Part shown: in pieces, positions 35,869-62,607 of the stretch
Position numbering within the stretch: position 1 is the stretch's first letter
Layout of the letters: each line of letters starts with the position of its first letter
Assembly: GCA_963422375.2 (NCBI GenBank)
Contig: OY729428.2
Span: 1,280,001-1,344,000, forward strand
From: Bryobacterales bacterium
GTDB taxonomy: Bacteria; Acidobacteriota; Terriglobia; Bryobacterales; UBA6623
Direction: 5' to 3'
DNA length: 64,000 nt
Made by a program: the position numbers and the translations under genes
Notes under the pieces: generated by a model
Database searches by the model: none
What the model saw: only the letters and a program-made list of their open reading frames with translations
Told to the model about the DNA's origin: nothing

Positions 35869-35878
35869 AGGAGGAACC

Positions 35879-36747: not shown

Positions 36748-36766
36748 CGGGCCGGAAGGGAATCCG

Positions 36767-38173: not shown

Positions 38174-38176
38174 GGA

Positions 38177-39628: not shown

Positions 39629-39658
39629 GGAGAGGGACGGAGACGAAAGGTTACACCC

Positions 39659-41030: not shown

Positions 41031-44000
41031 AGCGATCCGCGCGGGCGGCGTCCTGCTGAGCATCCGCGCCGACGTCGCCCAGTTCTCGGGGTCGATGCGC
41101 CGGATGGGCAACGACATCCGGCGCCAGGAACGGGCCATGCGCGGCCTGCGCCGGACGGTGCAGCGCGCGGCGCGGCAGATGCAGTCGTTCCGCCGGAAGG
41201 TGATCTCGGTGCAGGCCGCGGTCGGCGTGGTTTCCGGAGCCGCCGGGCTGGGACTGATGATCCGGCGCTCGGCCGAGCTCGGCTCGACGCTGGTCGAGAC
41301 GAGCCAGCGCCTGGGGCTGACGGTCCGCGACCTGCAGGCCCTGCAGCGCGCCTTCGAGAGCGAGGGCGTGTCCGTGCAGGCCGTCAACACCGGCCTGCAG
41401 CGCTTCACGCGGCGGCTGGCGGACGCGGCGAACGGGCAGGGCCAGCTGCAGGAGGCCTTCCGGGCCCTGGAAGCGCCGCTGCGGGACGCGAACGGCCGGC
41501 TGCGCGATTCCCACGACGTGCTGCTCGACGTCGCGGAGGGCTTCAAGAACACGGGCGACCAGCAGGAGCGCGTGCGCCTGGCCCAGAAGCTGTTCGACAG
41601 CGAGGGCGTGGCCTTCGTCAACGTCCTGCAGCGGGGCCGGGAGGGGCTGCTCGAGCTGGAGAAGGGCTTCGAGCGGCTGGGCTTCGTCGAATCCCGGGAG
41701 GCGGCGGCGCGGCTCAAGGCTCTCGGACAGAGCTTCGCGGACCTCGACCACGCCGTGCGCGCGGGCGCGGCCCGGGCCGTGGCCGCGGCGGCCGTCGACC
41801 TGGCCTCCCTCAACGAGCGGGCCGGGGAGCTCGCGGCGACCCTCGCCGGGCGCGCGATCGCGGCCGTGGCGCACCTCGCGCGGAACCTGGACGCCGCCAA
41901 GCAAGCCGCGATCGCCTTCGGCCTGGCTCTCGGCGCCATGAAGATCGGCGCGTGGGTCGGCACCGTCCGGGCGGCGATCGCGGCCTCCGCGGGCCTCGCC
42001 GCCGCGTTGCGCGGCCTGAATATCGCCGTCGCCGCGTTCGGGGGGCCGGCGGGCTGGATCGTCGCGGCCGTCGGAGCGCTGGGCTACTACTTCCTGTCCG
42101 CCAAGGACTCCCGGAACGAGACCGACGAGCTCGTCGCGTCGATCCGCGAGGCGGAGATCGTGCTCGCGGGAATGGACGCCTCGGCGCGGAAGCTCGGGCT
42201 CGAGAGAGAGCTCGAGAAGGCCGCCGAGCACGCCGCCGAGCTCGCCCGCGAGATCGCGGCTTCGCTGCAGAAGCACGACGAGCTCATGGAGGCCATGAAA
42301 GCGGGAGCGCGAGGGACCGTGTATTTCGTGGGCCGGGAGGGCAGGATACGCGCAGGCCTCGAGGCGGATGCCGCGCGGACGGCAGAGGAAATCGAGCGGC
42401 TGCAAGCCGAGCTCGCCGCAGCGAACGGGGAGACCCGGAACGCTCGCGGCGGCGGCGGCGATGAGATCCTGCCGCGCGTCCCGCACGTCCCGGAGGACTA
42501 CTTCGCGCGGTACGCGGACGCCGCCGAGCGGAGAATCCGGCTTGCCAGGCAGGAGCTCGCACTGGTCGGCAAGACCGGGGAGGATCTCCTGCAGCTGCAG
42601 GCGCGGCACGCGGTCGTCAACCGGCTGCTCGACGAGCGGGCGCAGCTGGAGCGGAGGCGCGAGAGGGCGGCGGCCGAGTTCCGGGCGGCGGCCGAGGCGG
42701 GCGACCAGCGGGCGCTCGCGGCGGAGCGGGAGAAGATCGCGGAACTCGATCGCGAGATCGCGGCGATCGCCAAGGCCGAGGAGGGCAAGGAATCGCTCGT
42801 GGCCCTGGAGCGCGAGGCCCTGGAGACCGCGGAGCAGGCTCGCGACGCGGCCAAGGAGCACGCCGCGGCCAACGAGCGCGCGACGGAGGCTGCCGAGGCC
42901 CAGGTCCGGGCGCTCGAGACGGCCAGCGCGGCCAGGGCCGATGGCCGGAGGGAGCATCTCAAGCTGGTCGCGGCCGAGGACCGCGAACTGCGGAGTCGCG
43001 AGGAGAGCGCCCGCGCGACGATCGCGAGGAGCGCGGCCGGCGGGGATGCGGAATCCGAGGGAGAGGCCGCGGCCCGCAGATCGTTCGAGGACCAACTGCG
43101 CGGGCTGGAGGCCCGAAGGGTAGGTCTGGACATCGACCTCGGCGGCGCCGCCGACGGCGACGCGGTCGCTGAGATCGACGCGCAATTGGCGGGCGTCGAG
43201 GTCCGGATCGAGGAGCTCCGCAATCGAGACCTCGGGCCGCTCGCGGCCCGCCTGGACAGAGTGGCCGGCATGGAGCGCCTGGCCGGGACGATCGAAGAGA
43301 ACTCGGTCGCGGCCGCGGCGCAGGATGCCGAGGCCCGGATCGCCGCGCTGAGCGAGGCCAACGCCGCGGCGTTCGAGGCGGCGATCCGGCGGGGCGCGGA
43401 TCCGGAGCGGCTCGCGCTGGCCCTCGGAGAGTACGCGTCCGAGGGGTCGCAGCGCTTCCGGGCGGCCTCCGACGAGGCCTTCGAGGGCCTCAAGCGAGAC
43501 CTCGCCGCCAAGCGGCACGCGCTGCTCGCGGCGGCCGAGGAGTTCCGGCGCCGGGCCCGGGCGGCCGCAGGCGACGAGCGGCGGAACCAGCTCTTCGAGA
43601 ACGCCGCTGCCGCCGCGGCCGCCGCGGAGAATCTCCGGACGCAGCTCGGCGACGCGCCCGGGCTGCGGGCCGCGAATCGGGATCGGATCGAGCGGGAGGC
43701 GCGCGAGAGGCTGGTCGACGAGCGCTTCCGCCGCCGCCAGGCGATCCAGAGGGATCTGCTGGCGCTGTCCGAGTCGATGTCCCGGACGCTCTCCGACGGG
43801 CTGGCCCGGGCCGTCGAGCAGGGCGGCAAGCTGAAGGACCACTTCAAGGAGATCGGCCGGACGCTGCTGAACATGGCGCTCCGGAAGCTGGTCATCGACA
43901 AGGCGACGAGCGCGCTCTCCGGGGCCCTGTCGGGGCTGTTCGGCGGCGGGGGCGGCGGGGCGGCGCCCGGCAAGGCCGGCGGCGGCCCCGTCGAGGCCGG

Positions 44001-44280
44001 GCGGATCTACCGCGTCGGCGAGAGCGGCGTGGAGCTGTTCCGGCCGGCGGCGGCCGGTTCCATCGTGCCGAACCACCGCCTGCGGCCGCTCGCCGGCGGG
44101 AGCGAGGCGCCCGCGGTCACGCTCAACATCCGCGTCGAGTCCACGGACGGCCCCGGCGTGGAGGCGGCGATCCGGCGCCTGCGGCCGCTGCTGGCGTCCG
44201 ACGCGGCCGAGCTCGCGAAGGGCGCGGTGAGAACGGACCTGGCGCGGGCGTCGGGGCTCAGAGGGACGCTGCGTGCCTGA
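41023..44280 (+). CDS. Tape measure protein
   Basis: 1085 aa, Ala-rich helical; C-terminal GGPV..GRIYRVGESGVELF..G.IVPN. Confidence 0.93.
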   Translation: MAEAIRAGGVLLSIRADVAQFSGSMRRMGNDIRRQERAMRGLRRTVQRAARQMQSFRRKVISVQAAVGVVSGAAGLGLMIRRSAELGSTLVETSQRLGLTVRDLQALQRAFESEGVSVQAVNTGLQRFTRRLADAANGQGQLQEAFRALEAPLRDANGRLRDSHDVLLDVAEGFKNTGDQQERVRLAQKLFDSEGVAFVNVLQRGREGLLELEKGFERLGFVESREAAARLKALGQSFADLDHAVRAGAARAVAAAAVDLASLNERAGELAATLAGRAIAAVAHLARNLDAAKQAAIAFGLALGAMKIGAWVGTVRAAIAASAGLAAALRGLNIAVAAFGGPAGWIVAAVGALGYYFLSAKDSRNETDELVASIREAEIVLAGMDASARKLGLERELEKAAEHAAELAREIAASLQKHDELMEAMKAGARGTVYFVGREGRIRAGLEADAARTAEEIERLQAELAAANGETRNARGGGGDEILPRVPHVPEDYFARYADAAERRIRLARQELALVGKTGEDLLQLQARHAVVNRLLDERAQLERRRERAAAEFRAAAEAGDQRALAAEREKIAELDREIAAIAKAEEGKESLVALEREALETAEQARDAAKEHAAANERATEAAEAQVRALETASAARADGRREHLKLVAAEDRELRSREESARATIARSAAGGDAESEGEAAARRSFEDQLRGLEARRVGLDIDLGGAADGDAVAEIDAQLAGVEVRIEELRNRDLGPLAARLDRVAGMERLAGTIEENSVAAAAQDAEARIAALSEANAAAFEAAIRRGADPERLALALGEYASEGSQRFRAASDEAFEGLKRDLAAKRHALLAAAEEFRRRARAAAGDERRNQLFENAAAAAAAAENLRTQLGDAPGLRAANRDRIEREARERLVDERFRRRQAIQRDLLALSESMSRTLSDGLARAVEQGGKLKDHFKEIGRTLLNMALRKLVIDKATSALSGALSGLFGGGGGGAAPGKAGGGPVEAGRIYRVGESGVELFRPAAAGSIVPNHRLRPLAGGSEAPAVTLNIRVESTDGPGVEAAIRRLRPLLASDAAELAKGAVRTDLARASGLRGTLRA

Positions 44281-44920
44281 GGTCCAGCATGCAGACGCGC
44301 GCCAGCATACCGAGGTACTCTCGCGCCCGGGCGGTCACCGGGACGGCCGGGGAGAGGCGAAGGCTGGCGTCCTCGTGAAAGATCCGGAAGCTGAATTCCT
44401 CGGAGGAGTGGATCCTGGCGAGCGCCCGCGCCGCGTCGATGCCGTAGAGCACGCCATGGCGCGGGCTGGGGCCGAGCGTGCCGAAGAAATGCAGCGTCTC
44501 GCGCGAGTCCTCGCCCCGCTTCCGGAAGACGAGCTGCAGCCTCGCGCCGGGTCGACTGAATCCCAGCGGCTCTTGCGGATCCGAGGCGAGACGCCGCGAC
44601 TCGGCGACCGCCTCTGCGCCGCTTGCTGCCGGCCCGTTGGAAAAGGTAATCGACAGGCTTGTGAATGCCTGGCTTATCAATACCCGGAGGGGAGTCGTGG
44701 CCGGCTTGGCGCAGGTAAACCTGACGCTAAACCTGGACTCGTGTCTATCGTCGACGGTCACGTGGGCGGCACGGCCCTTGCCCTTCTCCACGACCGGGGC
44801 CCAGTCCACGAGCCGGTCGGGATCCAGCCGGCCGTACGGCTCGTGCTGGGCCGCGGCGAGCGCCGCCGCGAGGAACGCGAGGAAGAGGAGGGCGGGGATG
44901 CGAGCGAAAGGGCCGGTCAC
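44258..44920 (-). CDS. Opposite-strand secreted protein (moron) inside the tail operon
   Basis: Signal peptide (LLFLAFLAAALAAAQ), lower GC, fills the gap between tape measure and distal tail genes. Confidence 0.65.
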   Translation of the reverse strand: MTGPFARIPALLFLAFLAAALAAAQHEPYGRLDPDRLVDWAPVVEKGKGRAAHVTVDDRHESRFSVRFTCAKPATTPLRVLISQAFTSLSITFSNGPAASGAEAVAESRRLASDPQEPLGFSRPGARLQLVFRKRGEDSRETLHFFGTLGPSPRHGVLYGIDAARALARIHSSEEFSFRIFHEDASLRLSPAVPVTARAREYLGMLARVCMLDLRHAASL

Positions 44921-44991
44921 GCGGTGCGAGGCGCCTCCGGGGCGCCGGACCCAGTGTACCGCGGGGGCGACGGGGGCGACGGGGGCGATTC

Positions 44992-45579
44992 GTGGCGCTG
45001 ATCCCGTTCCCGGCGGGCGTGCCGGTGACGCGCTCGGACCTGGCCCTGGGGCATCCCGGCCAGATCGTGCTGCGCTCGCCCTACGGCGGCGGGACGCAGG
45101 TGCTCGGGCGCGGTCCCGGCATCTGGTCCGGACGGCTCGAGATCGGCCCGGCCGACCGCGCCTCGGTCGCGGACCGGCGCGCGGTCGAGGCCTTCCTGGC
45201 GCGGCTGCGGGGGGCCGGGAACACGTTCGAGGCGCCGTTGCACCGCCCCAGCGGCGGCTCGCTCGTCGCCGGGGCCGAGCTGTCGGTGCAGGCGGCGGGG
45301 ATCTACGCGGGCGGCCTGCGCGTGTGGGCGGACGGCTCCTCCGAGGGCCTCGTCGCGGGCGACTACGTGCGCATCGGCGAGCGCCTGTACCAGCTGGTCT
45401 CGGACCTGCGGGGCGGCCGCTGCGAGCTGGAGCCGCCGGCGACGCCCTCCGCGGGGCGGGGCATCGCCTGGGAGGGCGTCACCTGCCTGGCGCGCCGGAC
45501 CGGGCCCGAGCGCGAGCCGTGGAGGCTGGATCCCGACTTCGCCGGGCCGTGGGCGATCGAATGGGAGGAGGCGGCGTGA
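44992..45579 (+). CDS. Distal tail protein-like
   Basis: SPYGGGTQV..W, EAFLARLRG, AGDYVRIG..LYQLV; position after tape measure. Confidence 0.65.
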   Translation: MALIPFPAGVPVTRSDLALGHPGQIVLRSPYGGGTQVLGRGPGIWSGRLEIGPADRASVADRRAVEAFLARLRGAGNTFEAPLHRPSGGSLVAGAELSVQAAGIYAGGLRVWADGSSEGLVAGDYVRIGERLYQLVSDLRGGRCELEPPATPSAGRGIAWEGVTCLARRTGPEREPWRLDPDFAGPWAIEWEEAA

Positions 45580-46169
45580 CGGCTGAAGCCCCCTGGGTGC
45601 AGAACCTCGTCGAGCTGGCCTACCCCGGGGGCGCGACGCGGCTGTGGACGGGCCGCGGCGAGCTGAGCTTCGCCCCGGACGACGGCGACGCCGGCGGCGA
45701 CGCCCGCAAGGTAGCCTGGACCGGCGGGGCGGCCCTCGGCATCGGCGAGCACGAGCGCGTGTCGGGCCGCCCCGAGCGCCGCATGAGCCTCGCGCTCTCG
45801 GGCGTGCCGCGCGAGCGGCGGGCCCGGTTCATGCAGGATCCCGGCCCGATCGAGGTGACCGTGCGCTGGGTGTACAGCCCCGACCTCGGCGAGAGCTGGC
45901 ACGAGGTGCCCGGGGCGCGGTACCGGGGCCGCCTGTCGGGCGGGTCGCTGCAGGACGGGACGCTCGCGGTCGAGCTGGAGACCCTGCTCGGCGACGTGGA
46001 GCGGGGCCGGCCGCGGCGCTGGTCGCACGAGGACCAGCAGCGGCGCTCCCCGGCCCGCGAGGTCGCGGCCGGGGACGGGGGCGCGAAGCGGACCGTGCCG
46101 GCCGACCTGGGCCTCGAGCACATGCGGGCGCTGGCCCGCCAGGGAGTGGAGACGGCGTGGCCGCCCTAG
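45576..46169 (+). CDS. Tail tip protein
   Basis: RLWTGRG, RRWSHEDQQR, D.GLEHM motifs of siphophage minor tail proteins. Confidence 0.65.
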   Translation: MTAEAPWVQNLVELAYPGGATRLWTGRGELSFAPDDGDAGGDARKVAWTGGAALGIGEHERVSGRPERRMSLALSGVPRERRARFMQDPGPIEVTVRWVYSPDLGESWHEVPGARYRGRLSGGSLQDGTLAVELETLLGDVERGRPRRWSHEDQQRRSPAREVAAGDGGAKRTVPADLGLEHMRALARQGVETAWPP

Positions 46170-46624
46170 CCGGCCCAGCCGGGCGCGAGCGGGCGCGGCG
46201 GGTCCGCGACGCCCTCGAGTCCGAGGGCCTCGGGCCGTCCGCCTGGCGCGAGCGCGACTGCGTGACGCTGCTGCGAGCGGTCGTGCGGGCCCTGTCGGGC
46301 CGCGAGCCCTCGCTGGCCCTGCCGGCCTGGACCGACGGCCTCGGCGAGCGCGAGGCGATCCTGCGAGCTCCCCGCGAGCACGGCTCGCTGCGGGACGGCT
46401 GGGCCGCGGTGCTGGACGCCGAGCCGCTGCTGCGGCGCGTCCCGCGGGGATGCCTGCCGCGGCCGGGCATGATCGCCCTGGCGGCGGTCGTCCTCGGCCC
46501 CGGGGGCGAGCGCCTGGCGGGCGCCTCGCCGGGCGTGATCGGCCCGGGCTGCGAGTGCTGGGTCCGGACGCCGCGGGGCATCGAGCGGGCGCACCCGGTC
46601 ACGGACCTGTGGGAGGTCCGCTGA
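46157..46624 (+). CDS. NlpC/P60-like tail assembly protein
   Basis: W.ERDCVTL motif, position before the central tail protein. Confidence 0.5.
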
Positions 46625-46625
46625 G

Positions 46626-51740
<5,115 letters not shown>

Positions 51741-51747
51741 GAGCGAC

Positions 51748-53676
51748 ATGGATCCCGCCTACGTCATCAACGCCTTTCCCGAGCGGCGCGAGGCCGTCGC
51801 GTTCGAGCTCGAGCGCCACGGCGGCGCGGACCCGGCCGCGATCCGCTGGATCGGCGCCCCGCGCGGCAGCGCGGCCCGCGGCGAGCCGCTGTTCGCCTGG
51901 CCCCGCTGGCGCGAGGAGCGGACCGGGGCCCTGCTGACGTGGGGCGAGCTGGCCTGCTTCGCGGGGCACCTCGAGGCCTGGCGGCGCATCGCCGCCGGCG
52001 ACGCGGGCGGGGGCTTCGTCTTCGAGGACGACGCCGCGCTGACGGCCCGCCTGGACGGGCTGCCGGCGGAGGCCTTCGCCGGCGCCGGCCTGGTGTACCT
52101 GCACTCGCAGTGGCGCTGCGAGCCCGAGCCGGGCCCGGGCCCCTGGTGCGCGGCGCCGTACACGTGGACGCTGACGGCCTACTGGCTCTCGCGGGAGGCC
52201 GCGGCCGGGCTGGCCGCGGCGGTCGATCCGGACCGGATCGTGCCGGCGGACGAGTACGTGCCGTGGCACTGCGGGACGTGGGACCCGGCCTTCAACCCGC
52301 GCGTGCGCGGCGAGCTGGGGCAGCAGCCGCCGGCGGGGATCGCGGCCCGCTGCCTGCGGGAGCGGCCGGCCGGGCCGTCCGGGCGCTGGGAATCGTCCAC
52401 CGCGGCCGGCCTCTCCCCGCCGGCCTTCGACTTCGAGACGGTCGTCTTCGCCACCGAGCCGGCCCGGGCCGGGGAGGCGCTGGGGGCCCTGCGCGACCTC
52501 GGCTACCGCCCGCGGGTCCTCGGCGCGGGCGAGCCGGGCTGGGACGCCTCGGCGGAGGGCGGCATGCCCAAGCTGCGCTGGCTGCGGGAGGACCTCGCGG
52601 GATCCGACCCGCGGCGGCGCGTCGTGCTGGCGCTGGACGGCTACGACACGCTGCCGCTGGTCCCGGCCGCGGAGTTCTGGGCGCGCTTCGCCGGCATGGA
52701 CTGCCCGGCGGCGATCTCCGGGGAGCGCGGGCTGTGGCCCCCGCGCAACGAGTGGGTGCCCGACCCGGAGCGCGCCTGGCAGGCGTACTGGGAGGACTGG
52801 CCGTGGCGCCGCGAGGGCGTCGCCGAGCGCTACCGGCACGCGTGCAGCGGCGCCTTCGCCGGGCACGCCGAGACGCTGGACTGGGTGCTGCAGGGCCTGC
52901 CGCCCGACGGCGACGACCAGGCCTGGATGCAGGCCGCCGTGCTGGCCAACCCGCGCGCCTGGCGGGTCGACTCGGAGGCCTGGCTGTTCCAGTCGCTGGG
53001 CGGCGAGGAGGGCGCCGTCGAGCGGCGCGACGGCGCGGCCTTCAACGCGGCCACCGGCTGCTACCCGGCGATCCTGCACGCCAACGGCCCGCAGGCCTCG
53101 CTGGACCCGTTCCTGCCGGGCCCGCCGCCGGCGGCGCTCGAGCTGGACCCGGACGCCGGGCGCTGGCTGGAGCTGGCGCCGGGCGTCCTGGGCATGCCGT
53201 TCCTGTCGCGCGCGGCCTGCGCCGGGCTGCTCGAGAGAGCGGAGGCCAGCGACGCCTGGCAGCCGCTGGAGGGGGACGCCGTGCCGGGCGACGAGCTGCG
53301 CCTGCGCGCGCTGGACCCGGCGCTGCGGGCGTGGCTGGACGAGACCCTGCGCGCGGTCGTCGGTCCGGCGGTCGCGGCGCGCTGGCATCCCGCCGCCTGG
53401 AAGGACCCCTGCGACGCCTTCCTGATCCGCTACCGCCCGGACCGCCAGCCGTCGCTGCGGCTGCACGAGGACATCAGCTACCTGTCCTGCTCGATCCGCC
53501 TGCGGCGGGCCTGCGCGGGCGGGCAGCTGCGCTTCCCGCGCCAGAATTTCGACGACGGCGCGGCGGACGACGGCTGGCTGCTGCTGTGGCCGTCGCGGAT
53601 CACGCACCCGCACCGCGTGCTGCCGGTGCGGCGGGGGACGCGCGCCAGCCTGGTGGTGTGGACCCCGGAGAGCTGA
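51748..53676 (+). CDS. Putative trifunctional collagen-modifying enzyme: GT25 (COLGALT-like) + PLOD-type glycosyltransferase + PLOD-type lysyl hydroxylase (2OG-Fe(II))
   Basis: [33 protein letters not shown] (GT25); KLRWL, LALDGYD, SGAFAG, DDQ, LFQSL, ILHANGP (PLOD GT); [25 protein letters not shown] (PLOD LH). Confidence 0.85.
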
Positions 53677-53691
53677 GCGGGGAGCCGAGCG

Positions 53692-54534
53692 GTGCCCGCG
53701 TTTATCCGCTGGCGCGTCGAGGCCGCCGGGGGGACCGACTTCGGCGCGCCCCAGCCCGTGCTGGCGGGCCTGCCGGGCGGCCCCGGACAGCCCGGGCCCA
53801 AGGGCCTGCCCGGCCGGGCCGGACCGCCCGGAGCCCCCGGGCCGACCGGAGTCCCCGGGCGGGCGGGGCCGGCCGGGCTCCCCGGCCTCGAGGGGTTCCC
53901 GGGGCTGCCCGGCGCCGAGGGCGCCGGGGGCTCCCGGGGGGCCCGGGGGCTCCGGGGCCTGGACGGCGCGCCGGGCGCGAAGGGGGTTCCCGGCCGCCGG
54001 GGGGCGCCCGGAGCGCAGGGCGCGCGGGGGGATCCGGGGGGCCCGGGGGCGCAGGGGCGGCAGGGCTCTCCCGGCGCCCGGGGCCCGGCCGGCGCGCGCG
54101 CCGCGCGAGGCGAGGCCGGCAGGGGCGGCGCGGGCGGAGACCCCGGCGCGGGCGGAGACCCCGGCGCCCGGGGCGCCGGCGGCACCCCCGGAGACCGCGG
54201 CAGTCCCGGCTCCCGGGGAGACAGGGGCTCCCTGGGCGACAGGGGCCCCCCGGGCGCCGGAGGAGACGCCGGCGCCCCCGGAGACCGCGGCAGTCCCGGC
54301 TCCGGGGGAGACGCCGGCGCCGCCGGAGGCATCGGTATCACCGGCTCGGACGGGGCCGGCGGGGCCGGCGGCGAGCCCGGGGGCGCCGGAGACCAGCCCA
54401 GCGGGCCGGACGGATGGTCCGGGCCGGCCGGACCGCCGGGAGACCCGGGCGGGAACGTCTACCTGCAGGCTTACGACGACGGGTACGGCGAGGGCTACTT
54501 CGACGGCGAGGACGACTGCTACTCCGAGCAGTGA
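53692..54534 (+). CDS. Collagen-like protein 1 (Pro-in-Y rich, acidic Tyr/Gly C-terminus)
   Basis: Near-continuous Gly-X-Y over most of 280 aa. Confidence 0.88.
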
Positions 54535-54542
54535 CGCGAGCG

Positions 54543-55409
54543 ATGCCGACGACGACGTGGACGACGGAGGCCGCCGCCGTCGAGCGGGACGACCTGCGCG
54601 CGCGGGACTTCGGCCCGGCGCGAGCGGACTCCGCGCTGCACCCGCCCGGGCCGCCCGGGCCGCGCGGGGAGACGGGCCCGCCGGGGCCCCGGGGCCCGGA
54701 CGGGCCTGCCGGGCGCCCGGGGCCGCCCGGGCCGCGCGGGGAGACGGGCCCGCCCGGCGCGTTCGCCCGCGCCGGCGCCCCGGGCGCTCCGGGCCCGGCC
54801 GGCCCCAAGGGCTCCGCGGGCCTGCCCGGACAGCCCGGAACCCCCGGCGCTCCGGGCGCCAAGGGCTGGCCCGGACGGCAGGGCCTGCCGGGAGCCGAGG
54901 GAGCCGGGGGCGCCAAGGGCCGCAAGGGCTACAGGGGCCCCGGGGGCCCCGGGGGCTCCAAGGGCTCCAGGGGCGCCAAGGGCGCCAAGGGCTACAGGGG
55001 CCCCGGGGGCCCCAAGGGCGTCGAGGGCCGGAAGGGCTCCGACGGCGCGCGGGGCGCCAAGGGATACAGGGGCGCCAAGGGGACCAAGGGGACCAAGGGC
55101 TCCAAGGGGACCAAGGGCCTCAGGTCCTTCCCCTTCCGCGGGCCCCGGGGCCCCAAGGGCTACAGGGGCAGCCCCGGCCCGGCCGGCGGGACCGGCCGCG
55201 GGGGCTACGCGGGCGCGCGGGGCCCGCGCGGGGCCCGCGGGCCGGCCGGCGAGCCGGGCCCGATCGGCCAGGTCTACCAGGAGCCGCTGCGCGGCGACCC
55301 CGGGCCGAAGGGGCGCAAGGGCGCCAAGGGCAGGCGCGGCCGGACGCTGGGCTACTCCTCCGGGTACGCGGCCGGGCATGCTGACGGATACGCGGATGCC
55401 GGCTGCTAG
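54543..55409 (+). CDS. Collagen-like protein 2 (GPP/GPR then GxK/KGYR rich)
   Basis: Gly-X-Y runs; ATG 54543 lies within the spurious 51939..55409 frame. Confidence 0.85.
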
Positions 55410-56265
55410 CGGGGCGCTGTGGACGATCGTCGCGCGCGCCCCGGACGCCCGCTCCGTGCGGGCCGGGGGCTTCGGCGCGCCGCGGCTGTACGCCGGCCCC
55501 GTCGGCCCCGTCGGCGAGCGCGGACGCCCGGGACCGCCCGGCGGCGAGGGGCACCCCGGACCGCCCGGACCGCCCGGACCGCGGGGCCCGCGCGGGCCCC
55601 GCGGCCGGCAGCGGCGCGGCGAGCGCGGACGCCCCGGGGCCGTCGGCCAGCGGGGCGCGCCGGGCGACCCGGGACCGGCGGGCCGGGGCGGCGACCCCGC
55701 CCCCGACGGCGCGCAGGGCGACAGGGGCGCCCGGGGCCTGCCCGGGAGGCAGGGCGACCCCGGCCCCGGCGGCGCGCAGGGCGACAGGGGCGCCCGGGGC
55801 CTGCCCGGGAGGCAGGGCGACCCCGGCCTCGGCGGCGCGCAGGGCGACAGGGGCGCCAAGGGCGTCAAGGGCTCCAAGGGGCGCAAGGGCTACAGGGGCG
55901 TCAAGGGCGCCAAGGGCGCCAAGGGCGCCAAGGGCGCCAAGGGCGCCAAGGGCGCCAAGGGCTCCGACGGCGCGCGGGGCGCCAAGGGCCCCAAGGGGTA
56001 CAAGGGCGCCAAGGGGTACAAGGGCGCCAAGGGCGCCAAGGGCGCCAGGGGCCGGAAGGGCCCCAAGGGGTACAAGGGCGCCAAGGGGTACAAGGGGTAT
56101 AAGGGATACAAGGGGAGCAAGGGCGAGGCCGGCTACTATTCCGGCAGCCCGTTCAACCCCGAGGACTACCGGGGGGCGCCCGGGCCGCCCGGCTCCAAGG
56201 GCGCCAAGGGCGCTTCCGGAGGAGGACGCAACTATGGCCGGACGACGCTACCGCATGCTCGCTGA
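55396..56265 (+). CDS. Collagen-like protein 3 (extremely GxK rich)
   Basis: Gly-X-Y runs incl. (GAK)6; start ATG 55396 (MPAASG) parallels the paralog starts, 55378 is the alternative. Confidence 0.85.
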
Positions 56266-56497
56266 CGGCGACCCGGACAAGCTCTCGGCGGAGAGCTTCC
56301 GCGCTTTCGGCGAGCTGGCCGCGCGGCGCGGGAGGGCCCCCGTCACCCTCTGGGTGCTCGAGTCCGACGAGGAGCTCTCCGCCGAGGGCGCCCGCCCGCT
56401 GCGCCCGCTGCCGGACGGCACCTGGGAGGCTCCCGGCGGCCGCCGCTGGCGCCGCTTGACCGGGACCCCCGGCGGCGCGGAGGGCCCCCGCGCGTGA
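56234..56497 (+). CDS. Small hypothetical protein sharing a motif with the tail tip protein
   Basis: GGAGG RBS; RPLRPLPDGTW..PGGRRW resembles [18 protein letters not shown] in 46626..51740. Confidence 0.6.
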   Translation: MAGRRYRMLADGDPDKLSAESFRAFGELAARRGRAPVTLWVLESDEELSAEGARPLRPLPDGTWEAPGGRRWRRLTGTPGGAEGPRA

Positions 56498-57048
56498 ACG
56501 GCCCCTGGAGCCTGGTGCCCGGCGCCGTCGACGACTGCGCGGGCCTGCTGCGCGCGCTGCTCGACAGCACGGAGCTGCGCCCCGGCACCGTCAACGGCGA
56601 CGGCTCCGTGCGCCCCGACATCCGCCGCTCCGCCGTCGGCTGGCCCGACCCCGCCCGCCACGCCGCCGAGCTCGCCCGCGTGCGCCGGGCCGTTCTCGCG
56701 GCCAACCGCGAGCTGTGGGGCTTCGATCTCGACGGCGGCGAGGAGTGGCAGCTCACGCACTACACCCATCTCGACGCGGGCGTCTACGAGCGGCACATGG
56801 ACTGCTCGCTGGAGGGCGGGCGGCCGCGCTGCCGCAAGGTCTCCGTCTGCGTCAACCTGTCCGACCCGCGCGACTACGAGGGCGGCTCGCTGCGGCTGGG
56901 GGCCGTGGGCCAGCCCGACCGCGCGGCGCTGCGCCAGCGCGGCGCCGCGCTGGTCTTCCCCAGCTTCGTCGAGCATCGCGTCACGCCCTTGCTGGCCGGG
57001 GAGCGCTACTCCCTCGTCGCCTGGTTCTCCGGGCCGGCCTGGCGCTAG
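56494..57048 (+). CDS. 2OG-Fe(II) oxygenase (prolyl 4-hydroxylase/PKHD-like)
   Basis: YERHMD (HxD), RKVSVCVNLSDP.DYEGG.L, FPSFVEHRVTP...GERYSLVAW. Confidence 0.9.
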   Translation: MNGPWSLVPGAVDDCAGLLRALLDSTELRPGTVNGDGSVRPDIRRSAVGWPDPARHAAELARVRRAVLAANRELWGFDLDGGEEWQLTHYTHLDAGVYERHMDCSLEGGRPRCRKVSVCVNLSDPRDYEGGSLRLGAVGQPDRAALRQRGAALVFPSFVEHRVTPLLAGERYSLVAWFSGPAWR

Positions 57049-57067
57049 CCCGCGCCGCCGCGCCTAC

Positions 57068-57076
57068 TGGTATAAT
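57068..57076 (+). promoter_or_regulatory. Extended -10 promoter (TGnTATAAT) upstream of the defence moron
   Basis: TGGTATAAT, 20 bp after the oxygenase stop, in otherwise very GC-rich DNA. Confidence 0.55.
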
Positions 57077-57361
57077 GGAGAGATGCTGGCTCCGGCGTCA
57101 GCATCGTGATCTGGGCGCCGGGGCTGGCAGCTGCAGCAGCACCCGCTGCCACCCTCCCCTGGGTAGAGGGGCCGTGCACGGCCTAACTCCCCGAGGATAG
57201 GGGTGGCAGCGGACCCTAGGCACGGTAGCGCGATCCGTGCGAGGGCCCTGAAGCCCCGCCGCACGGTACGCTGGGAGACGTCGAGCGGAACCCTTTGCGA
57301 GAGCGTTGCCGGGCGGGCCCGCGAGGGCCCGCCCTATTCGTATCGGGAGCGGGAGCGGGGC

Positions 57362-57595
57362 ATGGGAACGCGGACGCTGCACTTCCTGGCAGCCTTCGAT
57401 CAGGTCTGCGACAGGGAGCTGCTTCCCATGAGGCAGGCCGAGGAATGTGGCGCCCGGAGAACAATCGACGAGGCGGCGGCAGTGGCGCTCGGTATCGCTC
57501 CCGATGCAATCGCGGACTGGAGAAGGCGTTTGGCGTTGGAGCCGACGATCACCAATGTGCGCGTCAGGGAACCCGGGAGCGAAGAGGCATCCTGA
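57362..57595 (+). pseudogene. C-terminal fragment of a larger gene (possibly an RM/DNA methylase protein)
   Basis: Protein-like tail LAAFDQVCDRELLP...IDEAAAVALG...WRRRLALEPTITN with no credible N-terminus; GC shift here. Confidence 0.35.
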
Positions 57596-57641
57596 GCATG
57601 GCCCTGAACGCGAAGCACACGGATTTCCAAGGGGCTTGAGC

Positions 57642-59738
57642 ATGTCTGTCGAATACTCGATGAGAATTTCCCGGCTTACCGTCGACAAGTTGGGGGTCAA
57701 GCTCTACGACAAGGTGTCCGCCGTCATCGCCGAACTCATCGCGAACGCCTACGATGCCGATGCCACACATGTGACGGTTCGAGCGCCGATGGGGCAGTTT
57801 CTGGCGACTCGAGCCGGAGGCACCGTGGCGGACAAGGGCTTCAGCATCGAAGTCGACGACGACGGCATCGGCATGACGCCTCAGCAGGTACAGGACTTCT
57901 TTCTCGTCGTCGGTTCCGAGCGGCGGAACGACACCAGCCGAGGCGACCGTTCGCCCCGCTACAGACGTAAGGTCATGGGCCGCAAGGGCGTCGGAAAGCT
58001 GGCACCCTTCGGTATCTGCAAGACCATCGAGGTGATCAGTGCCGGCGGAGATTTCATCGACGGCGGGGGTGCGACCCCGGGCGCCACGGGCTACCTCACG
58101 TCCCACATCGTCCTCTACTACGATGGCATCACGGCGCTCGATGATGAGCCCGACGAACGCTACAAGCCGGTCGTGGGCGACCGCGATGAGTCTTACTCCC
58201 CGAAGTCGGGGACTCGAATCATCCTGAAGGACTTCAGCCACCGGAGGGTCCCCGAGCTCAATGTCCTCGGCCGCCAGCTCGCCCAACGCTTTGGTATCCC
58301 GTCGACGGACTGGAATGTCCAGCTTCTGGACAACACGGAATCCACTCCGTCACCGGTGACGGTCGGCACCTTCGACATTCAGACGATGCCGAACACGAAG
58401 CTCACGTTTGGGCAGAATGGAACTGTACTCAACCCCGACGGTGCTCCTGCGATGGACCAGTCGGCCGGATTCGAACATGAGGGCATATTTCGCCCCATCA
58501 CAGGCTGGATGGCGTACTCGAAGGCTCCCTACAAGGACGAGCTCATGGCTGGGGTGAGAATCTACTGCCGCGGCAAGATCGCCGCCCAGACATCCATCTT
58601 CAACCAGCGGGCCGGCTTTACCGGCGAGCACAACATCCGCTCCTATCTCGTCGGCGAGCTCCACGCCGACTGGCTCGACGAAGAAGAAGACCTCATCCAA
58701 ACCGATCGACGGGACATCCTCTGGTCGGACGAACTCGCTGCCGCCTTCCAAGCTTGGGGCCAGAGAATCGTCAAGAAGATCGGCACCCTGTCGCGGGAGC
58801 CCATGCGGAGAGCGACTTTGGATCTGTTCCTCGAGACGGGCGATGTCGACGCTCGCATCCAGAACGCCTATCCGACCGAAGAGCAACAAGACATTCGCAA
58901 AAGCGCGAAAGAGGTCGCCGAATCCTTCGGTCGCACGATCAGCCGAGGGGATGTCGAAGATGCCAGCGTCGTGAACGAACTGGTCGATCTGAGCATCACC
59001 CTCGCGCCCCACATCACGCTCAACGCCAAGATGAAGGAAGCGGTCGCCAGCGCCGACACGCCGCTCTCTGTCCTAGCTTCGTTCCTGCGTACGGCGCGAT
59101 TGGCCGAACTGTCCTCGTTCGGCAGAATCGCGGAAGACCGCCTCAAGGTCATCGACCGCCTCGAAATTCTGAAGGACGCCGACGACACCGACGAGAACGA
59201 TCTTCAGCGGCTGATCACTGACGCTCCCTGGTTGATCAACCCTGAATGGGCGCCGGTGACCGAAAACCAAACCTTCGCGAGTTTGCGCCGGGAGTTCGAG
59301 AAGTACTACAACGACAAGACCGGCCAGTCCATTTCGTTGTCCGATTTCCAGAAGACGGGCAAACGGCCGGACTTCGTCTTGTCCAATCAGGAAGGCACGG
59401 TGCAGATCATCGAGATCAAGAAGCCGGGCCATAGACTGTCGAACCCGGAAATGGACAGGATCGTCACCTACTACGAGAACATGGAGGCGTTCCTTGACGA
59501 CCCTGGGCATACCGCGTTTCGCATGCACTTGGCCGACTTCCATGTCACCGTGGTCTGCGACAGGCTCGGTTTGAGCGGTTCTCCGCGCGCCGCCTTTGAT
59601 GGTTATCGTGACAAAGGCAGACTGACGCGCATGGACTGGACGGCGTTTCTCCTGAAATCGGAACAAGTGCACCAGGATTTTCTCAGCGAGGCCCAGCGTC
59701 AGCGTGCCGCCGGACCAGCGGTTCCCGACGGCCATTGA
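57642..59738 (+). CDS. GHKL/MORC-type ATPase with C-terminal PD-(D/E)xK nuclease domain
   Basis: ELIANAYDADA, DDGIGM, GRKGVGKLA, GTRI; C-terminal RPDFVL...IIEIKKP. Confidence 0.85.
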   Translation: MSVEYSMRISRLTVDKLGVKLYDKVSAVIAELIANAYDADATHVTVRAPMGQFLATRAGGTVADKGFSIEVDDDGIGMTPQQVQDFFLVVGSERRNDTSRGDRSPRYRRKVMGRKGVGKLAPFGICKTIEVISAGGDFIDGGGATPGATGYLTSHIVLYYDGITALDDEPDERYKPVVGDRDESYSPKSGTRIILKDFSHRRVPELNVLGRQLAQRFGIPSTDWNVQLLDNTESTPSPVTVGTFDIQTMPNTKLTFGQNGTVLNPDGAPAMDQSAGFEHEGIFRPITGWMAYSKAPYKDELMAGVRIYCRGKIAAQTSIFNQRAGFTGEHNIRSYLVGELHADWLDEEEDLIQTDRRDILWSDELAAAFQAWGQRIVKKIGTLSREPMRRATLDLFLETGDVDARIQNAYPTEEQQDIRKSAKEVAESFGRTISRGDVEDASVVNELVDLSITLAPHITLNAKMKEAVASADTPLSVLASFLRTARLAELSSFGRIAEDRLKVIDRLEILKDADDTDENDLQRLITDAPWLINPEWAPVTENQTFASLRREFEKYYNDKTGQSISLSDFQKTGKRPDFVLSNQEGTVQIIEIKKPGHRLSNPEMDRIVTYYENMEAFLDDPGHTAFRMHLADFHVTVVCDRLGLSGSPRAAFDGYRDKGRLTRMDWTAFLLKSEQVHQDFLSEAQRQRAAGPAVPDGH

Positions 59739-59743
59739 CGAAC

Positions 59744-60838
59744 ATGACTCCGACGGCGATCGACATCTTTGCCGGCGCTGGGGGCCTGACGGTTGGCCTC
59801 AAACGCGCGGGCTTCCGCGTTGTCGCTGCGGTGGAGATCGAGGCCCATTCATTCGCTACCTACAAGGCGAACCATCCTGAGGTGCGGTGCCTGAAGCAGG
59901 ACATCGCCACGGTCTCCGGCGACGCTCTTTTCGAGCTCGCGGGAACAGACCGAATTGATCTACTGGCAGGTTGCCCGCCGTGCCAAGGCTTCACCAGCCT
60001 GACTGCAAAGTACAAGGGTAGGGAAGATCCTCGTAACGCACTCGTTCTCGAGATGGCCCGCCTCGCCGAGGAAATGCGGCCGCGGGCGATCATGATGGAG
60101 AATGTCCCCGGATTGGCACGAAAGGGCGGATCGCTATACGGTCGAATGCAAGCGCGACTCCAGGCGCTCGATTACCGACTGACAGATAGGATACTGCAAG
60201 TCGCTGATTACGGTGTCCCGCAGTTTCGGCGACGATTTGTCCTACTCGGTGGTCAAGGCTTCGAGATCGCCCTCCCGGACGCGACTCATTCCGGTACGCC
60301 GACTGGTAACCTTACGCGTTGGCGCACGGTAGGTGACACGATCAAGAACATGCCTGAACCCCTCACCTTGGCGGAGGCCAAGGCAAGGGGAGAGGTCGAG
60401 CGGTCCGACTGGCATGTCGTTCGAAAACTGTCGCGCGAGAACATCGAACGCATTAAGGCGGCGAAGCCAGGTGAGACATGGGCGCACATTCCCGAGCATC
60501 TCCGGCCGGCCTGTCACCGTGACGGCTATGTCGGATTCACCAATGTATACGGGAGGATGGTTTGGGACCGACCGTCACCTACGATTACCGGCGGCTGCAC
60601 CACTCTAAGCAAGGGCCGCTTTGGTCATCCGAATGCCGACCGGACGATCTCCGTACGGGAGGCCGCACTTCTCCAGACCTTTCCCCGAGACTACCGCCTT
60701 GACACACCGTTCATGGATTATGTGTGTAACATGATAGGCAACGCATTGCCGTGCGACTTTGCGGAAGCCCTCTCGCGGCGATGTCTAGACGAGCTTGGCA
60801 AACAGGCGAAAAGCATGTCCCCGACATTCTCCAGCTAG
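59744..60838 (+). CDS. DNA (cytosine-5)-methyltransferase
   Basis: DIFAGAGG, GCPPCQGF, MENVPG, YGVPQFRRR, REAALLQTFP, IGNA. Confidence 0.96.
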   Translation: MTPTAIDIFAGAGGLTVGLKRAGFRVVAAVEIEAHSFATYKANHPEVRCLKQDIATVSGDALFELAGTDRIDLLAGCPPCQGFTSLTAKYKGREDPRNALVLEMARLAEEMRPRAIMMENVPGLARKGGSLYGRMQARLQALDYRLTDRILQVADYGVPQFRRRFVLLGGQGFEIALPDATHSGTPTGNLTRWRTVGDTIKNMPEPLTLAEAKARGEVERSDWHVVRKLSRENIERIKAAKPGETWAHIPEHLRPACHRDGYVGFTNVYGRMVWDRPSPTITGGCTTLSKGRFGHPNADRTISVREAALLQTFPRDYRLDTPFMDYVCNMIGNALPCDFAEALSRRCLDELGKQAKSMSPTFSS

Positions 60839-60913
60839 CGTAGGGGAGCCACCCGAAATTGCCTAAGGTCGGCGTGTTCGAGAGCGAATCCTTCGCCAAT
60901 CCAACGGCTACGA

Positions 60914-61369
60914 TCAATTGATACATCGGCTAGTAGGCGTCTCGTTGGCAGCACCACCCGAGCCGAACAATTGGTCAGAGTGTCGGGGTACGGTCACAAC
61001 CAATCTAGGTCCGGGCGGTCGGGAGGCTTCCGGCTTGCCGCCGACCTTGCCGAACATGACGTAGATCGCGGAGACGGACGGATCGCGCATGGACTCGAAC
61101 ACGCTGTTGCCCACCGCGTTCCATGTGTCGCGCTTGCTGTACTTGACCTCGACGCCGAAGCCGTTGACGCGGATGTCGGGAAAGGCGTGGCGGTGGTAGG
61201 TCGGTTCGACCGTCGCGTCGAGATCGGTGGCCGCGTTCTGCAACGCGGCCAGCACGCCCTGCTCGAACTGGTCCGGGCCGTGGCAGAGCGTGCTGGTACG
61301 GAGATTGAGCGTCAGGAACTGCGCTGCGCGGTCCAGTAGCGCCTCGAACTCAGTCGGCGTCAACAACAA
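60914..61369 (-). pseudogene. Truncated PD-(D/E)xK restriction endonuclease
   Basis: HAFPDI....FGVEVK..D.W..VGNSVFE; sequence turns non-protein-like after KVGGKPEA (about 61025). Confidence 0.6.
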
Positions 61370-61528
61370 GATCTACGTTCTTCACGGTCCCTCCTTGCCC
61401 GTGGCCGGGGCGAAGCGCTCGGCGAAGCGCGCCGCCGTCATCGCCCGCCCCCTGCTCGCGGCATCAACAAGTGTAGCGCTCGGTTAGATCGGCGGGCGCG
61501 GGCCGGGGGGAGGGGGGGCAAATTCCCC

Positions 61529-62185: not shown

Positions 62186-62211
62186 GAATCTAGCCTAAGA
62201 AAAAAAAGTTC

Positions 62212-62261
62212 TTGACAAATGCCTCTGAGGCATGTAGATTGCCTACATGTCCGTGAGGCAT
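62212..62261 (+). promoter_or_regulatory. Lytic promoter (TTGACA-17-TAGATT) with operator palindromes
   Basis: -35 at 62212-62217, -10 at 62235-62240; palindrome ATGCCTCTGAGGCAT (62219-62233) and a 12/15 copy at 62247-62261. Confidence 0.8.
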
Positions 62262-62483: not shown

Positions 62484-62607
62484 CGGCCGACCTGCCGGGC
62501 CTGATGGCTTTCCTCCCGGAGGTGATGTCCCCGGGGGGAACGCGGGGCGGCTATCGGTTACGGCCGTCCCGCACCCGGATCGCCCGGTCCCGCGACGGAG
62601 GCGCCCG

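Follow-up and report, generated by a model that had tools for sequence, protein, structure and literature searches.

A three-domain prophage protein related to collagen lysyl hydroxylases and hydroxylysine glycosyltransferases lies among genes for collagen-like tail fibres

Glycosylation of collagen hydroxylysine is regarded as animal chemistry, to which mimivirus is a curious exception. In animals, COLGALT1 and LH3 form a two-protein complex (8zgc), and the acceptor for COLGALT1 is procollagen in the ER. COLGALT1 (9evj, 9u7h) carries its catalytic GT25 domain at the C-terminus and a non-catalytic glycosyltransferase (GT) domain at the N-terminus, while LH3 (PLOD3; 6fxk, 6fxr, 6wfv) combines a PLOD-type GT-A domain with a C-terminal lysyl hydroxylase (LH) domain, the two being separated by an accessory (AC) domain of ~240 residues. 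The GT domain of the mimivirus protein L230 is reportedly a glucosyltransferase, as the title of work by Luther from 2011 has it, and is said to put glucose directly onto hydroxylysine. In Acanthamoeba polyphaga mimivirus, an amoebal giant virus, the activities are split over three proteins, L230 (6ax6, 9nev), R699 (9dyt) and R655, and these enzymes are described as modifying the virus's own collagen-like proteins (PMC12279948).

Most prokaryotic collagens are said to be devoid of hydroxylation and glycosylation (PMC8968730). Bacterial hydroxylases acting on collagen-like proteins have been predicted, but these belong to other families (PMC2938197), and the use of viral prolyl 4-hydroxylase has been termed 'cryptic' (PMC9301287). 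Our search, which covered the literature outside subscription journals and included passages of PMC12220804 and PMC7029224, did not turn up any report of a GT25-PLOD fusion in phages or bacteria.

The window, i.e. the whole 64,000-nt stretch of Bryobacterales DNA analysed here, encodes such a fusion within a prophage. The relevant features, all on the forward strand, are as follows (bases of assignment in brackets).

27816..64000, left end near 27816, right end beyond the window: siphovirus-like prophage, structural module at ~28.7-57.05 kb on the + strand (PHROGs, repressor, GC, repeats)
46626..51740, +: J-like central tail fibre of 1704 aa, a candidate substrate whose collagen triple-helix repeats lie close to the C-terminus (PHROGs, Pfam)
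51748..52431, +: enzyme domain 1, aa 1-228, COLGALT1-type GT25 glycosyltransferase (VIA-align, PF01755)
52417..53115, +: enzyme domain 2, aa 224-456, PLOD-type GT-A glycosyltransferase resembling the glucosyltransferase domain of LH3 and R699 (VIA-align, PF25342)
53113..53676, +: enzyme domain 3, aa 456-642 and stop codon, PLOD/L230-type Fe(II)/2-oxoglutarate lysyl hydroxylase (VIA-align, phmmer)
53692..54534, +: collagen-like protein 1, 280 aa (PF01391, E 4.4e-23; tail-fibre PHROGs)
54543..55409, +: collagen-like protein 2, 288 aa; candidate substrate (translation starting MPTTTW, G-X-Y repeats)
55378..56265, +: collagen-like protein 3, 295 aa; candidate substrate (PF01391, E 1.2e-31)
56234..56497, +: small 87-aa ORF before the oxygenase (GC3 0.93)
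56494..57048, +: stand-alone 2OG-Fe(II) oxygenase of PKHD/prolyl-hydroxylase type, 184 aa (PF13640, 47.3 bits)

An earlier, sequence-only reading of this DNA had proposed that the ORF at 51748-53676 encodes a single 642-aa polypeptide uniting GT25, LH3-like GT and PLOD-like LH domains. The gene is real: the frame is free of internal stops, its GC content by codon position (0.77/0.59/0.98) is typical of true genes in this high-GC DNA, and a GGAG sequence lies 7 nt 5' of the ATG. The motifs quoted in that reading are all present in the translation. The gene is tightly packed between its neighbours, with 8 nt separating it from the upstream stop codon of the central fibre and 16 nt from the first collagen-like gene. 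A signal peptide is absent, which indicates a cytoplasmic protein. Outside the collagen repeats the DNA encodes few lysines: the 642-aa enzyme contains two, vs 28 in the 295-aa collagen-like protein 3. No NCBIfam model was found for the 642-aa protein.

The domain assignments were examined on an AlphaFold (AF2) model, which the sequence-only reading had called for together with structural superposition. Built on an alignment of 59 sequences, the model reaches a pLDDT of 93 and a pTM of 0.82; it replaces a discarded run with 14 close relatives (pLDDT 66, with 30-55 in the LH domain). Foldseek matches it to LH3 with an E of 4.7e-25. Among solved structures the three domains are closest to COLGALT1, to LH3 and R699, and to L230 and LH3, respectively, with VIA-align Z scores of 20.8-29.6 for the collagen enzymes vs 15-18 for the next-best, unrelated families. 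The structural borders (aa 1-228, 224-456 and 456-642) agree with those proposed earlier (aa 1-224, 228-458 and 471-642). At the level of sequence, a phmmer search of the PDB retrieves human LH3 (E 9.5e-22) over two stretches, aa 250-450 and 478-637, as well as R699 (E 1.8e-4) and L230 (E 3.3e-3). Taken as sequence and model evidence, these matches go far past what chance would produce and support the reading of the domains as collagen-lysine-modifying types. Residue conservation, as given below, was counted over 59 full-length relatives with 22-55% identity.

The N-terminal domain (aa 1-228) superimposes on residues 339-579 of COLGALT1 (9evj) with a Z of 24.6 and an rmsd of 2.2 A over 216 residues, whereas bacterial GT25 beta-1,4-galactosyltransferases reach only Z 15-16; a closer kinship with the GT25 enzymes of LPS biosynthesis, which would have spoken against the collagen assignment, is thus not what the structures indicate. 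Pfam recognizes the domain as PF01755 (29.4 bits vs a cut-off of 24), the match being limited to residues 52-101, and phmmer with the N-terminal 230 aa alone finds COLGALT1 with an E of 3.5e-6 over residues 51-172. In the phmmer alignment D94/D95 correspond to D436/D437 of COLGALT1 and D168 to D522, described as the acidic pair at the UDP-ribose and Mn and as the catalytic base, respectively (PMC12987934). D95 and D168 are kept in 59/59 relatives and D94 in 58/59. The segment aligned with the COLGALT1 lid region holds an S-x-T, with S216 in 30/59 relatives and T218 as T or S in 57/59, although the equivalents of S569/T571, the lid-loop Ser/Thr that hold the pyrophosphate, are only approximately placed. 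The phage GT25 begins at residue 1, without the non-catalytic domain that precedes it in COLGALT1; the two proteins have the catalytic domain in common, yet the phage enzyme is not a COLGALT orthologue.

The middle domain (aa 224-456) superimposes with a Z of 29.6 on the GT domain of human LH3 (6wfv; rmsd 1.9 A, 217 residues, 24% identity) and of 28.9 on mimivirus R699, and it scores 45.6 bits against PF25342 (GT_PLOD; cut-off 27). D297, D300 and H444 align by phmmer with D112, D115 and H253 of LH3, Y299 with Y114, D389/D390 with D190/D191 and W330 with W145. In LH3 the first three form a non-canonical DxxD plus His Mn2+ site, Y114 stacks on UDP and D190/D191 are the acceptor-side Asp-Asp, as described in PMC6082870; W145 is the gating Trp. 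D297, D300 and H444 are kept in 59/59 relatives, as is E326; Y299 is found in 54/59, D389 in 58/59, D390 in 56/59 and W330 in 57/59. W265 (58/59) is offset by about 3 columns from the site that phmmer matches to LH3 W75, the UDP-stacking Trp of the flexible loop, so that its placement is approximate.

The C-terminal domain (aa 456-640) is closest to the LH domain of mimivirus L230 (Z 20.8, rmsd 2.6-2.9 A, 174-176 residues) vs at most 16.4 for prolyl hydroxylases and other dioxygenases, so that the competing assignment to an unrelated dioxygenase family does not hold here either. LH3 is matched over this stretch with an E of 1.3e-12. The general 2OG-Fe(II) oxygenase model PF13640 scores 24.8 bits, just below its cut-off of 27, and is outweighed by the direct matches to LH3 and L230. 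The earlier reading had called the HxD...H Fe ligands and the 2OG-binding Arg intact, and the alignment to LH3 bears this out: H573, D575 and H622 correspond to H667, D669 and H719, R632 to R729 and Y562 to Y656, the LH3 residues being described as the Fe(II) triad and, in the case of R729 and Y656, as binding 2OG (PMC6082870). All 59 relatives keep the triad; at position 632 they divide into 30 with R and 29 with K, and 53 of them share Y562. L594 takes the place of LH3 Cys691 in the 2OG pocket and is Leu in 55/59.

The catalytic sites of the GT-A and LH domains are thus common to LH3 and the phage enzyme, at an identity of ~25%, but the architectures differ. As the sequence-only reading had noticed, the central accessory domain of PLOD proteins is missing: only ~25 residues lie between the GT and LH matches vs ~300 in LH3, and LH3 residues ~266-540, with the Rossmann-type AC domain, have no counterpart. 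Unlike LH3, the phage enzyme has an additional N-terminal GT25 domain, no signal peptide and Leu in place of Cys691. What animals assemble from COLGALT1 and LH3, and mimivirus distributes over three proteins with matching LH and GT domains, is represented in this tailed phage by a single AC-less chain of 642 aa.

What the earlier reading missed is that this is a phage gene, with the neighbouring collagen-like fibres as its likely substrates, and this changes the subject of the finding. PHROGs matches trace a siphovirus-like structural module, with starts for HNH at 29222, large terminase at 29768, portal at 31778, protease at 33042, major head protein at 33646 and adaptor at 35311, followed by the tape measure at 41023-44280 and the distal tail protein at 44992; a CI-like repressor with S24 and HTH domains is encoded at 61529-62185 on the minus strand. 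The GC content of the element is 75-84% vs a genome mean of 67%. Three copies of the prophage are present in the genome, the segment from 27816 to at least 61367 recurring at 98.5-99.9% identity on contigs C1 and C3, and the three copies of the enzyme gene are uninterrupted and 100% identical. A gene transfer agent was considered and rejected, given the repressor, the extension of the element past the structural module and its repetition. A restriction-enzyme-like moron lies just 3' of the tail-fibre module.

The enzyme gene is embedded in the tail-fibre genes. The 1704-aa protein upstream matches phrog_31 (central tail fiber J), phrog_5616 and phrog_6320 as well as PF01391 Collagen (E 4.4e-34), and contains 93 G-X-Y triplets with 14 Lys at Y and one at X. 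The three collagen-like proteins downstream contain 68, 72 and 74 triplets, and their repeat lysines are confined to Y, with 2/2 in protein 1 (where these are the only two in total), 19/19 in protein 2, which a simple GC3 filter misses, and 28/28 in protein 3, whose true start may be a second ATG 18 nt downstream. The 87-aa ORF found no match in Pfam or PHROGs, but homologues occupy the same position in 7/18 related loci (tblastn). The 184-aa oxygenase, possibly a fibre prolyl hydroxylase, is best matched in the PDB by the PKHD-type hydroxylases 3dkq and PiuC and by the P. putida P4H 4iw3; a homologue is found in 14/18 related loci, of which 8 were also covered by Pfam, and in S-CAM9.

The association of enzyme and collagen repeats extends well beyond the window. 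All 36 runs of at least 10 G-X-Y triplets in the 6.0-Mb genome fall within the three prophage copies. Such repeats adjoin the enzyme gene in 17/18 related loci, and the order of fibre, enzyme, collagen-like genes and small oxygenase recurs in related prophages. The enzyme family is widespread, with relatives in the hundreds, and mostly phage-borne: in the ESM-Atlas, 98-100% of the members of the nearest clusters (262, 77 and 52 in size) are viral, with tailed phages predominating. Homologues are encoded by the cultured Synechococcus phages S-CAM9, S-8S53/55/56 and S-PRM1 and by Roseobacter phage CRP-6 (gp58), where they are annotated merely as 'hypothetical protein' or '2OG-Fe(II) oxygenase'. 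These proteins share the three-domain layout (GT25 and GT_PLOD by Pfam) at ~25% identity over 90% of the length, and their genes directly follow collagen-bearing tail-fibre genes in which Lys occurs only at Y. The phages concerned are lytic marine myo- and podoviruses with very divergent sequences, whereas the window holds a temperate prophage.

Lysine at the Y position goes together with the presence of the enzyme. The repeats in the window hold 57 Lys at Y and one at X in 263 triplets, and the corresponding counts are 26 and 0 for CRP-6 and 22 and 0 for S-CAM9. Across the 18 related loci, Lys is found 371 times at Y and 25 times at X in 1883 triplets; as most enzyme-linked loci are related prophages, these counts are not independent. 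In 19 collagen loci without the enzyme, from 14 related genomes, the numbers are 5 at Y and 12 at X in 812 triplets. It should be borne in mind that Arg likewise favours Y (210 vs 46), so the asymmetry is in part general to collagen. Direct G-X-Y counts were used in place of the Pfam collagen model, which at E <= 1e-8 detects collagen in only 2/6 enzyme-bearing relatives; short repeats fall below this threshold, and genome-level co-occurrence by Pfam is therefore uninformative.

With three enzyme types joined in one protein amid the phage's own Lys-rich collagen-like fibre genes, the phage probably sugar-coats its own fibres. We consider it likely that a cytoplasmic enzyme with three active sites converts fibre Lys to Hyl, Hex-Hyl and finally Hex2-Hyl. 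As part of the late structural operon, the enzyme would be produced alongside the tail fibres, and its acceptor would be a phage fibre instead of procollagen. In a first step, the C-terminal Fe(II)/2-oxoglutarate domain would hydroxylate the Y-position Lys of Gly-X-Lys while the chains are still unfolded, the putative substrates being the 1704-aa fibre and collagen-like proteins 1 to 3. The N-terminal GT25 domain would then attach a first hexose to the new hydroxyl. Galactose donated by UDP-Gal is the most likely sugar here, and the transfer would be inverting, D168 being the presumed base. In the third step, the middle PLOD-type GT-A domain would add a second hexose, most likely glucose from UDP-Glc, with a requirement for Mn2+. 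Virion fibres bearing glycosylated hydroxylysine would result, and prolines of the fibres may be hydroxylated by the 184-aa oxygenase encoded nearby. Both the identity of the sugars and the order of Gal before Glc are predictions from homology.

This last point leaves some room for a reading in which the fibres are indeed the targets but the chemistry departs from the animal route, by direct attachment of glucose to Hyl, by a GT25 that extends the glycan or acts at another site, by the use of other sugars, or by one GT domain serving merely as a scaffold. Donor and acceptor specificity and the order of transfer are not readable from alignments; a second GT domain that binds UDP-Gal without being the catalytic one has a precedent in COLGALT1 itself (PMC12987934), and some related architectures in the ESM-Atlas join the hydroxylase to different GT folds. 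Both GT domains nevertheless retain every mappable catalytic or metal-binding residue in 58-59 of the 59 relatives, which makes a mere scaffold role unlikely, and LH3-GT and R699, which the middle domain resembles most closely in structure, are both galactosylhydroxylysyl glucosyltransferases according to PMC12279948 and the structure titles. We regard such a departure as rather unlikely.

Surface-modifying glycosyltransferases are common in prophages, and the GT domains could in principle serve lysogenic conversion by acting on the envelope of the host, be it LPS, capsule or a host protein, in place of the fibres and so changing the surface of the lysogen, a reading that draws on the Pfam label of GT25 as an 'LPS biosynthesis' family and on the moron just downstream. 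The gene, however, does not occupy a moron position but sits within the tail-fibre operon, in the same orientation as the fibre genes and with little space between them; its GT domains are fused to a domain of lysyl hydroxylase type; the bacterial GT25 galactosyltransferases fall far behind COLGALT1 as structural matches; and the tie to Lys-at-Y collagen repeats is also seen in unrelated lytic phages. Envelope modification is, on this evidence, improbable. A further possibility, that a defective prophage merely carries along a decaying or inactive gene with no present function, is very improbable. Truncated or interrupted copies do occur in related loci (L003, L005, L007, L013 and L017, with stops in L054, L058 and L061), and a search of sequencing runs listed no RNA run containing the gene, but the element here keeps its full structural module and repressor, its three enzyme copies are intact and identical with a GC3 of 0.98, and the catalytic residues are invariant over 59 diverse relatives.

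Modification of the phage's own fibres thus appears the likely role of the enzyme. A more far-reaching proposition, which we put forward tentatively and consider open to real doubt, is that tailed phages make true animal-type Glc-Gal-hydroxylysine on their fibres with one enzyme, and that this gene pool fed the enzymes of giant viruses and possibly of eukaryotes. If true, having GT25, GT and LH fused in one chain would provide a natural 'Rosetta stone' to the LH3-COLGALT1 complex of animals. Mimivirus L230 has reportedly been used to produce modified recombinant collagen in bacteria, and the phage gene, if its product is active, would offer a one-gene tool for the same purpose. An active enzyme would also provide a minimal, AC-less model of how a lysyl hydroxylase and two sugar transferases cooperate, and would bear on the origin of the PLOD and COLGALT domains. 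For the phages themselves, it would represent a new post-translational modification of the virion, likely to influence host recognition or the stability of the fibres.

The enzyme gene lies inside the tail-fibre module of a prophage. Its reading frame of 642 codons (window 51748-53676, + strand) is uninterrupted, the GC content by codon position (0.77/0.59/0.98) follows the pattern of true genes in the window's DNA, and a GGAG stands 7 nt 5' of the ATG; the gene proposed by the sequence-only reading is thus real, and all the motifs quoted there are found in the translation. The gene starts 8 nt past the upstream stop and ends 16 nt ahead of the next start. Every gene between ~28.7 and 57.05 kb is on the + strand, and their order according to PHROGs is HNH endonuclease, large terminase, portal, head protease, major head protein, adaptor, tape measure, distal tail protein and central fibre. 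The fibre module and the repressor are arranged as follows:

46626-51740, +, central fibre, 1704 aa, J-like, with collagen repeats, directly ahead of the enzyme
51748-53676, +, enzyme
53692-54534, +, collagen-like protein, downstream of the enzyme
54543-55409, +, second collagen-like protein
55378-56265, +, third collagen-like protein
between the collagen-like genes and the oxygenase, +, 87-aa ORF
following the 87-aa ORF, +, 184-aa 2OG oxygenase
61529-62185, CI-type repressor

Among solved structures the small oxygenase is closest to PKHD-type hydroxylases and to a bacterial prolyl 4-hydroxylase; it is possibly a prolyl hydroxylase. Residues ~880-1200 of the central fibre, ahead of its collagen region, form about six tandem units of ~55 residues, as judged by eye, which contain the pattern DG.WG..... 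The structural region (28000-57000) has a GC content of 75-84% vs 67% for the genome, and therefore holds long spurious ORFs in all frames, such as a 1349-aa frame that runs antisense to the central fibre gene. It also carries a tRNA-Arg (anticodon CCT) at 36990-37062 (+). Directly past the fibre module, a 763-aa GHKL-ATPase protein (57447-59738, +) resembles restriction enzymes of the BbrUII/HgiDII family (NCBIfam 234 bits, under the cut-off of 550; REase_II in PADLOC); with a second REase_II-like ORF at 60914-61369 (-), it looks like a prophage-borne defence island.

The genome carries the prophage (window 27816-64000) three times, in near-identical copies that agree at 98.5-99.9% up to window position 61367 and at 91-95% beyond it, and the three enzyme copies in the genome are identical. 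Two prophage copies cross both ends of two other contigs, C1 and C3; these contigs are therefore circles whose junction falls in the phage, or else they were broken inside the repeat. The third collagen-like protein has 48 triplets in the window copy, against 46 in each of the others.

Sequence searches place three domains in the enzyme. Pfam reports GT25 (PF01755) at residues 52-101 (29.4 bits, cut-off 24), the 'PLOD GT domain' (PF25342) at 249-449 (45.6 bits) and PF13640 at 578-639 (24.8 bits, slightly below the cut-off of 27). Among all PDB chains, the top phmmer match is human LH3 (PLOD3; E 9.5e-22) in two stretches, residues 250-450 with its GT domain and 478-637 with its hydroxylase domain, followed by human COLGALT1 and mimivirus R699 and L230. 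The N-terminal 230 residues alone have the catalytic GT25 domain of COLGALT1 as their sole significant match (E 3.5e-6), and solved bacterial GT25 proteins are absent from the matches at E <= 10 in that search. A first AlphaFold model built with 14 relatives was poor (pLDDT 66); one with 59 diverse full-length relatives reached pLDDT 93 and pTM 0.82, and Foldseek ranks LH3 first for it (E 4.7e-25).

Closest solved structures to each part of the enzyme model (VIA-align)
Residues 1-228: best COLGALT1 339-579, Z 24.6, rmsd 2.2 A over 216 aligned; next mimivirus R655, Z 18.2, and bacterial beta-1,4-galactosyltransferases, Z 15-16
Residues 224-456: best LH3 GT domain (6wfv), Z 29.6, rmsd 1.9 A over 217 aligned; next R699, Z 28.9
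Residues 456-640: best L230 hydroxylase domain, Z 20.8, rmsd 2.6-2.9 A over 174-176 aligned; next PKHD and prolyl hydroxylases, Z 16.4 or less

Each of the three domains is closest to a collagen-modifying enzyme. They do not cluster with LPS GT25s (Z 24.6 vs 15-16) or with unrelated dioxygenases (Z 20.8 vs 16.4 or less), the outcome that would have told against the sequence-only reading, and its suggestion that the PLOD accessory domain is absent holds: that domain of LH3 has no counterpart, and ~25 residues join the two matched stretches vs ~300 in LH3.

The active sites can be mapped by counting printed alignments to UniProt numbering, with inferred chain offsets of +40 (9u7j) and +23 (6fxk) that were checked on several residues. 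Enzyme D94/D95 and D168 align with COLGALT1 D436/D437 and D522, respectively; PMC12987934 assigns D436/D437 to UDP ribose and Mn and makes D522 the catalytic base. D297/D300/H444 align with LH3 D112/D115/H253, the Mn ligands according to PMC6082870, and Y299 corresponds to Y114 and D389/D390 to D190/D191. In the hydroxylase domain, H573/D575/H622, R632 and Y562 align with LH3 H667/D669/H719, R729 and Y656, whose roles are likewise taken from PMC6082870. LH3 Cys691 is replaced by Leu, and the positions equivalent to W75 of LH3 and to the lid residues of COLGALT1 can be placed only approximately. Across a 59-sequence alignment (22-55% identity to the enzyme), D95, D168, D297, D300, E326, H444, H573, D575 and H622 are conserved in 59/59 and D94 in 58/59; position 632 is occupied by R in 30 sequences and by K in the other 29.

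The Y-position lysine in X-Lys-Gly is the target site of collagen lysyl hydroxylases. The second and third collagen-like proteins carry all of their lysines at Y (19/19 and 28/28); the enzyme itself holds only 2 lysines in 642 residues. Every one of the 36 G-X-Y runs with 10 or more triplets in the genome (6.0 Mb) falls within the three prophage copies, some of these runs being echoes in alternative frames.

Lysine position in G-X-Y repeats
Window, enzyme present: 263 triplets; 57 Lys at Y, 1 at X
18 enzyme-linked public loci: 1883 triplets; 371 at Y, 25 at X
Roseobacter phage CRP-6: 98 triplets; 26 at Y, 0 at X
Synechococcus phage S-CAM9: 59 triplets; 22 at Y, 0 at X
Control, 19 loci from 14 related genomes without the enzyme: 812 triplets; 5 at Y, 12 at X

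The control was built from 30 collagen loci returned for 120 relatives of the window's genome, leaving out 10 loci from enzyme-holding genomes (the window's own, G000, and the related G036 and G056) and one overlapping locus. Lysine at Y is therefore associated with the enzyme across this sample, in which the prophage loci are kin and the control collagen proteins may be of other kinds. Arginine likewise favours Y (210 vs 46 at X).

Given this lysine pattern, together with the homology, the conserved active sites and the synteny, the enzyme is probably a cytoplasmic, late-expressed trifunctional modifier of phage fibres, and the adjoining collagen-like fibre proteins are its likely substrates. 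From the same observations we infer the activities and the identities and order of the sugars: Y-position lysines of nascent fibre chains would be hydroxylated, a first hexose would then be added via the GT25 site, and a second via the PLOD-type GT site. In a rather unlikely alternative the fibres remain the target and the glycan is built by other chemistry, or one of the two GT domains is silent. That the enzyme is a conversion factor of the host surface is very improbable. An inactive relic, with its frame open and its metal ligands kept, is hardly credible.

As a trifunctional fibre modifier, the enzyme can be likened in its working to the animal pair LH3 and COLGALT1, which occur together in a complex (PDB 8zgc) and have the same domain types, and to the mimivirus L230/R699 set; it is, however, an orthologue of none of these. 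Unlike the PLODs it has no accessory domain, COLGALT1's N-terminal GT domain is missing from it as well, and it is cytoplasmic and belongs to a tailed phage. In long relatives (P0072, P0082, P0087 and P0104), GT25 is fused to an entire PLOD with its GT, accessory and LH domains; P0072 (936 aa) matches human LH3 at E 1.8e-133 and COLGALT1 at 9e-48. No description of a phage or bacterial GT25-PLOD fusion enzyme was found in searches of the literature outside subscription journals.

The enzyme has many relatives. A homologue search returned 13 further clusters of 611-632 aa at 42-53% identity, each with the same domain set, and a representative library gave 4401 matches at E <= 1e-3, of which 197 reach E <= 1e-30; among the best 150, at least 51 cover all three domains. 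In ESM-Atlas, the nearest clusters hold 262, 77 and 52 members of 617-623 aa and are 98-100% viral, with tailed phages in the majority. Homologues of ~25% identity and 90% coverage occur in 11 of 50,697 phage records, from Synechococcus phages S-CAM9, S-8S53/55/56 and S-PRM1, Roseobacter phage CRP-6 and one marine virus, annotated as 'hypothetical protein' or '2OG-Fe(II) oxygenase'; in S-CAM9 and CRP-6, collagen-bearing tail-fibre genes lie directly 5'. Public genomes hold 17 loci, all labelled Acidobacteriota MAGs and 15 of them Bryobacterales, and IMG/VR adds one viral contig. In 17 of these 18 loci the gene has G-X-Y runs beside it, the exception being a 32-residue fragment match; the small oxygenase is found in 14/18, and the distal tail protein and fibre N-terminus are syntenic in related loci (42-59% identity). 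At locus L004, the oxygenase is followed by an NAD-dependent sugar epimerase (12781-13803, +; PF01370, E 1e-54), which could be a UDP-Glc/UDP-Gal 4-epimerase supplying donor sugar.

Six of the 120 genomes related to that of the window match the enzyme profile. All six belong to the same coded family, and the 30 same-genus genomes give no match. Truncated or stop-interrupted enzyme copies occur at loci L003, L005, L007, L013 and L017 and at L054, L058 and L061, and related genomes hold up to four copies each, which suggests that prophages often decay and multiply in this family of bacteria.
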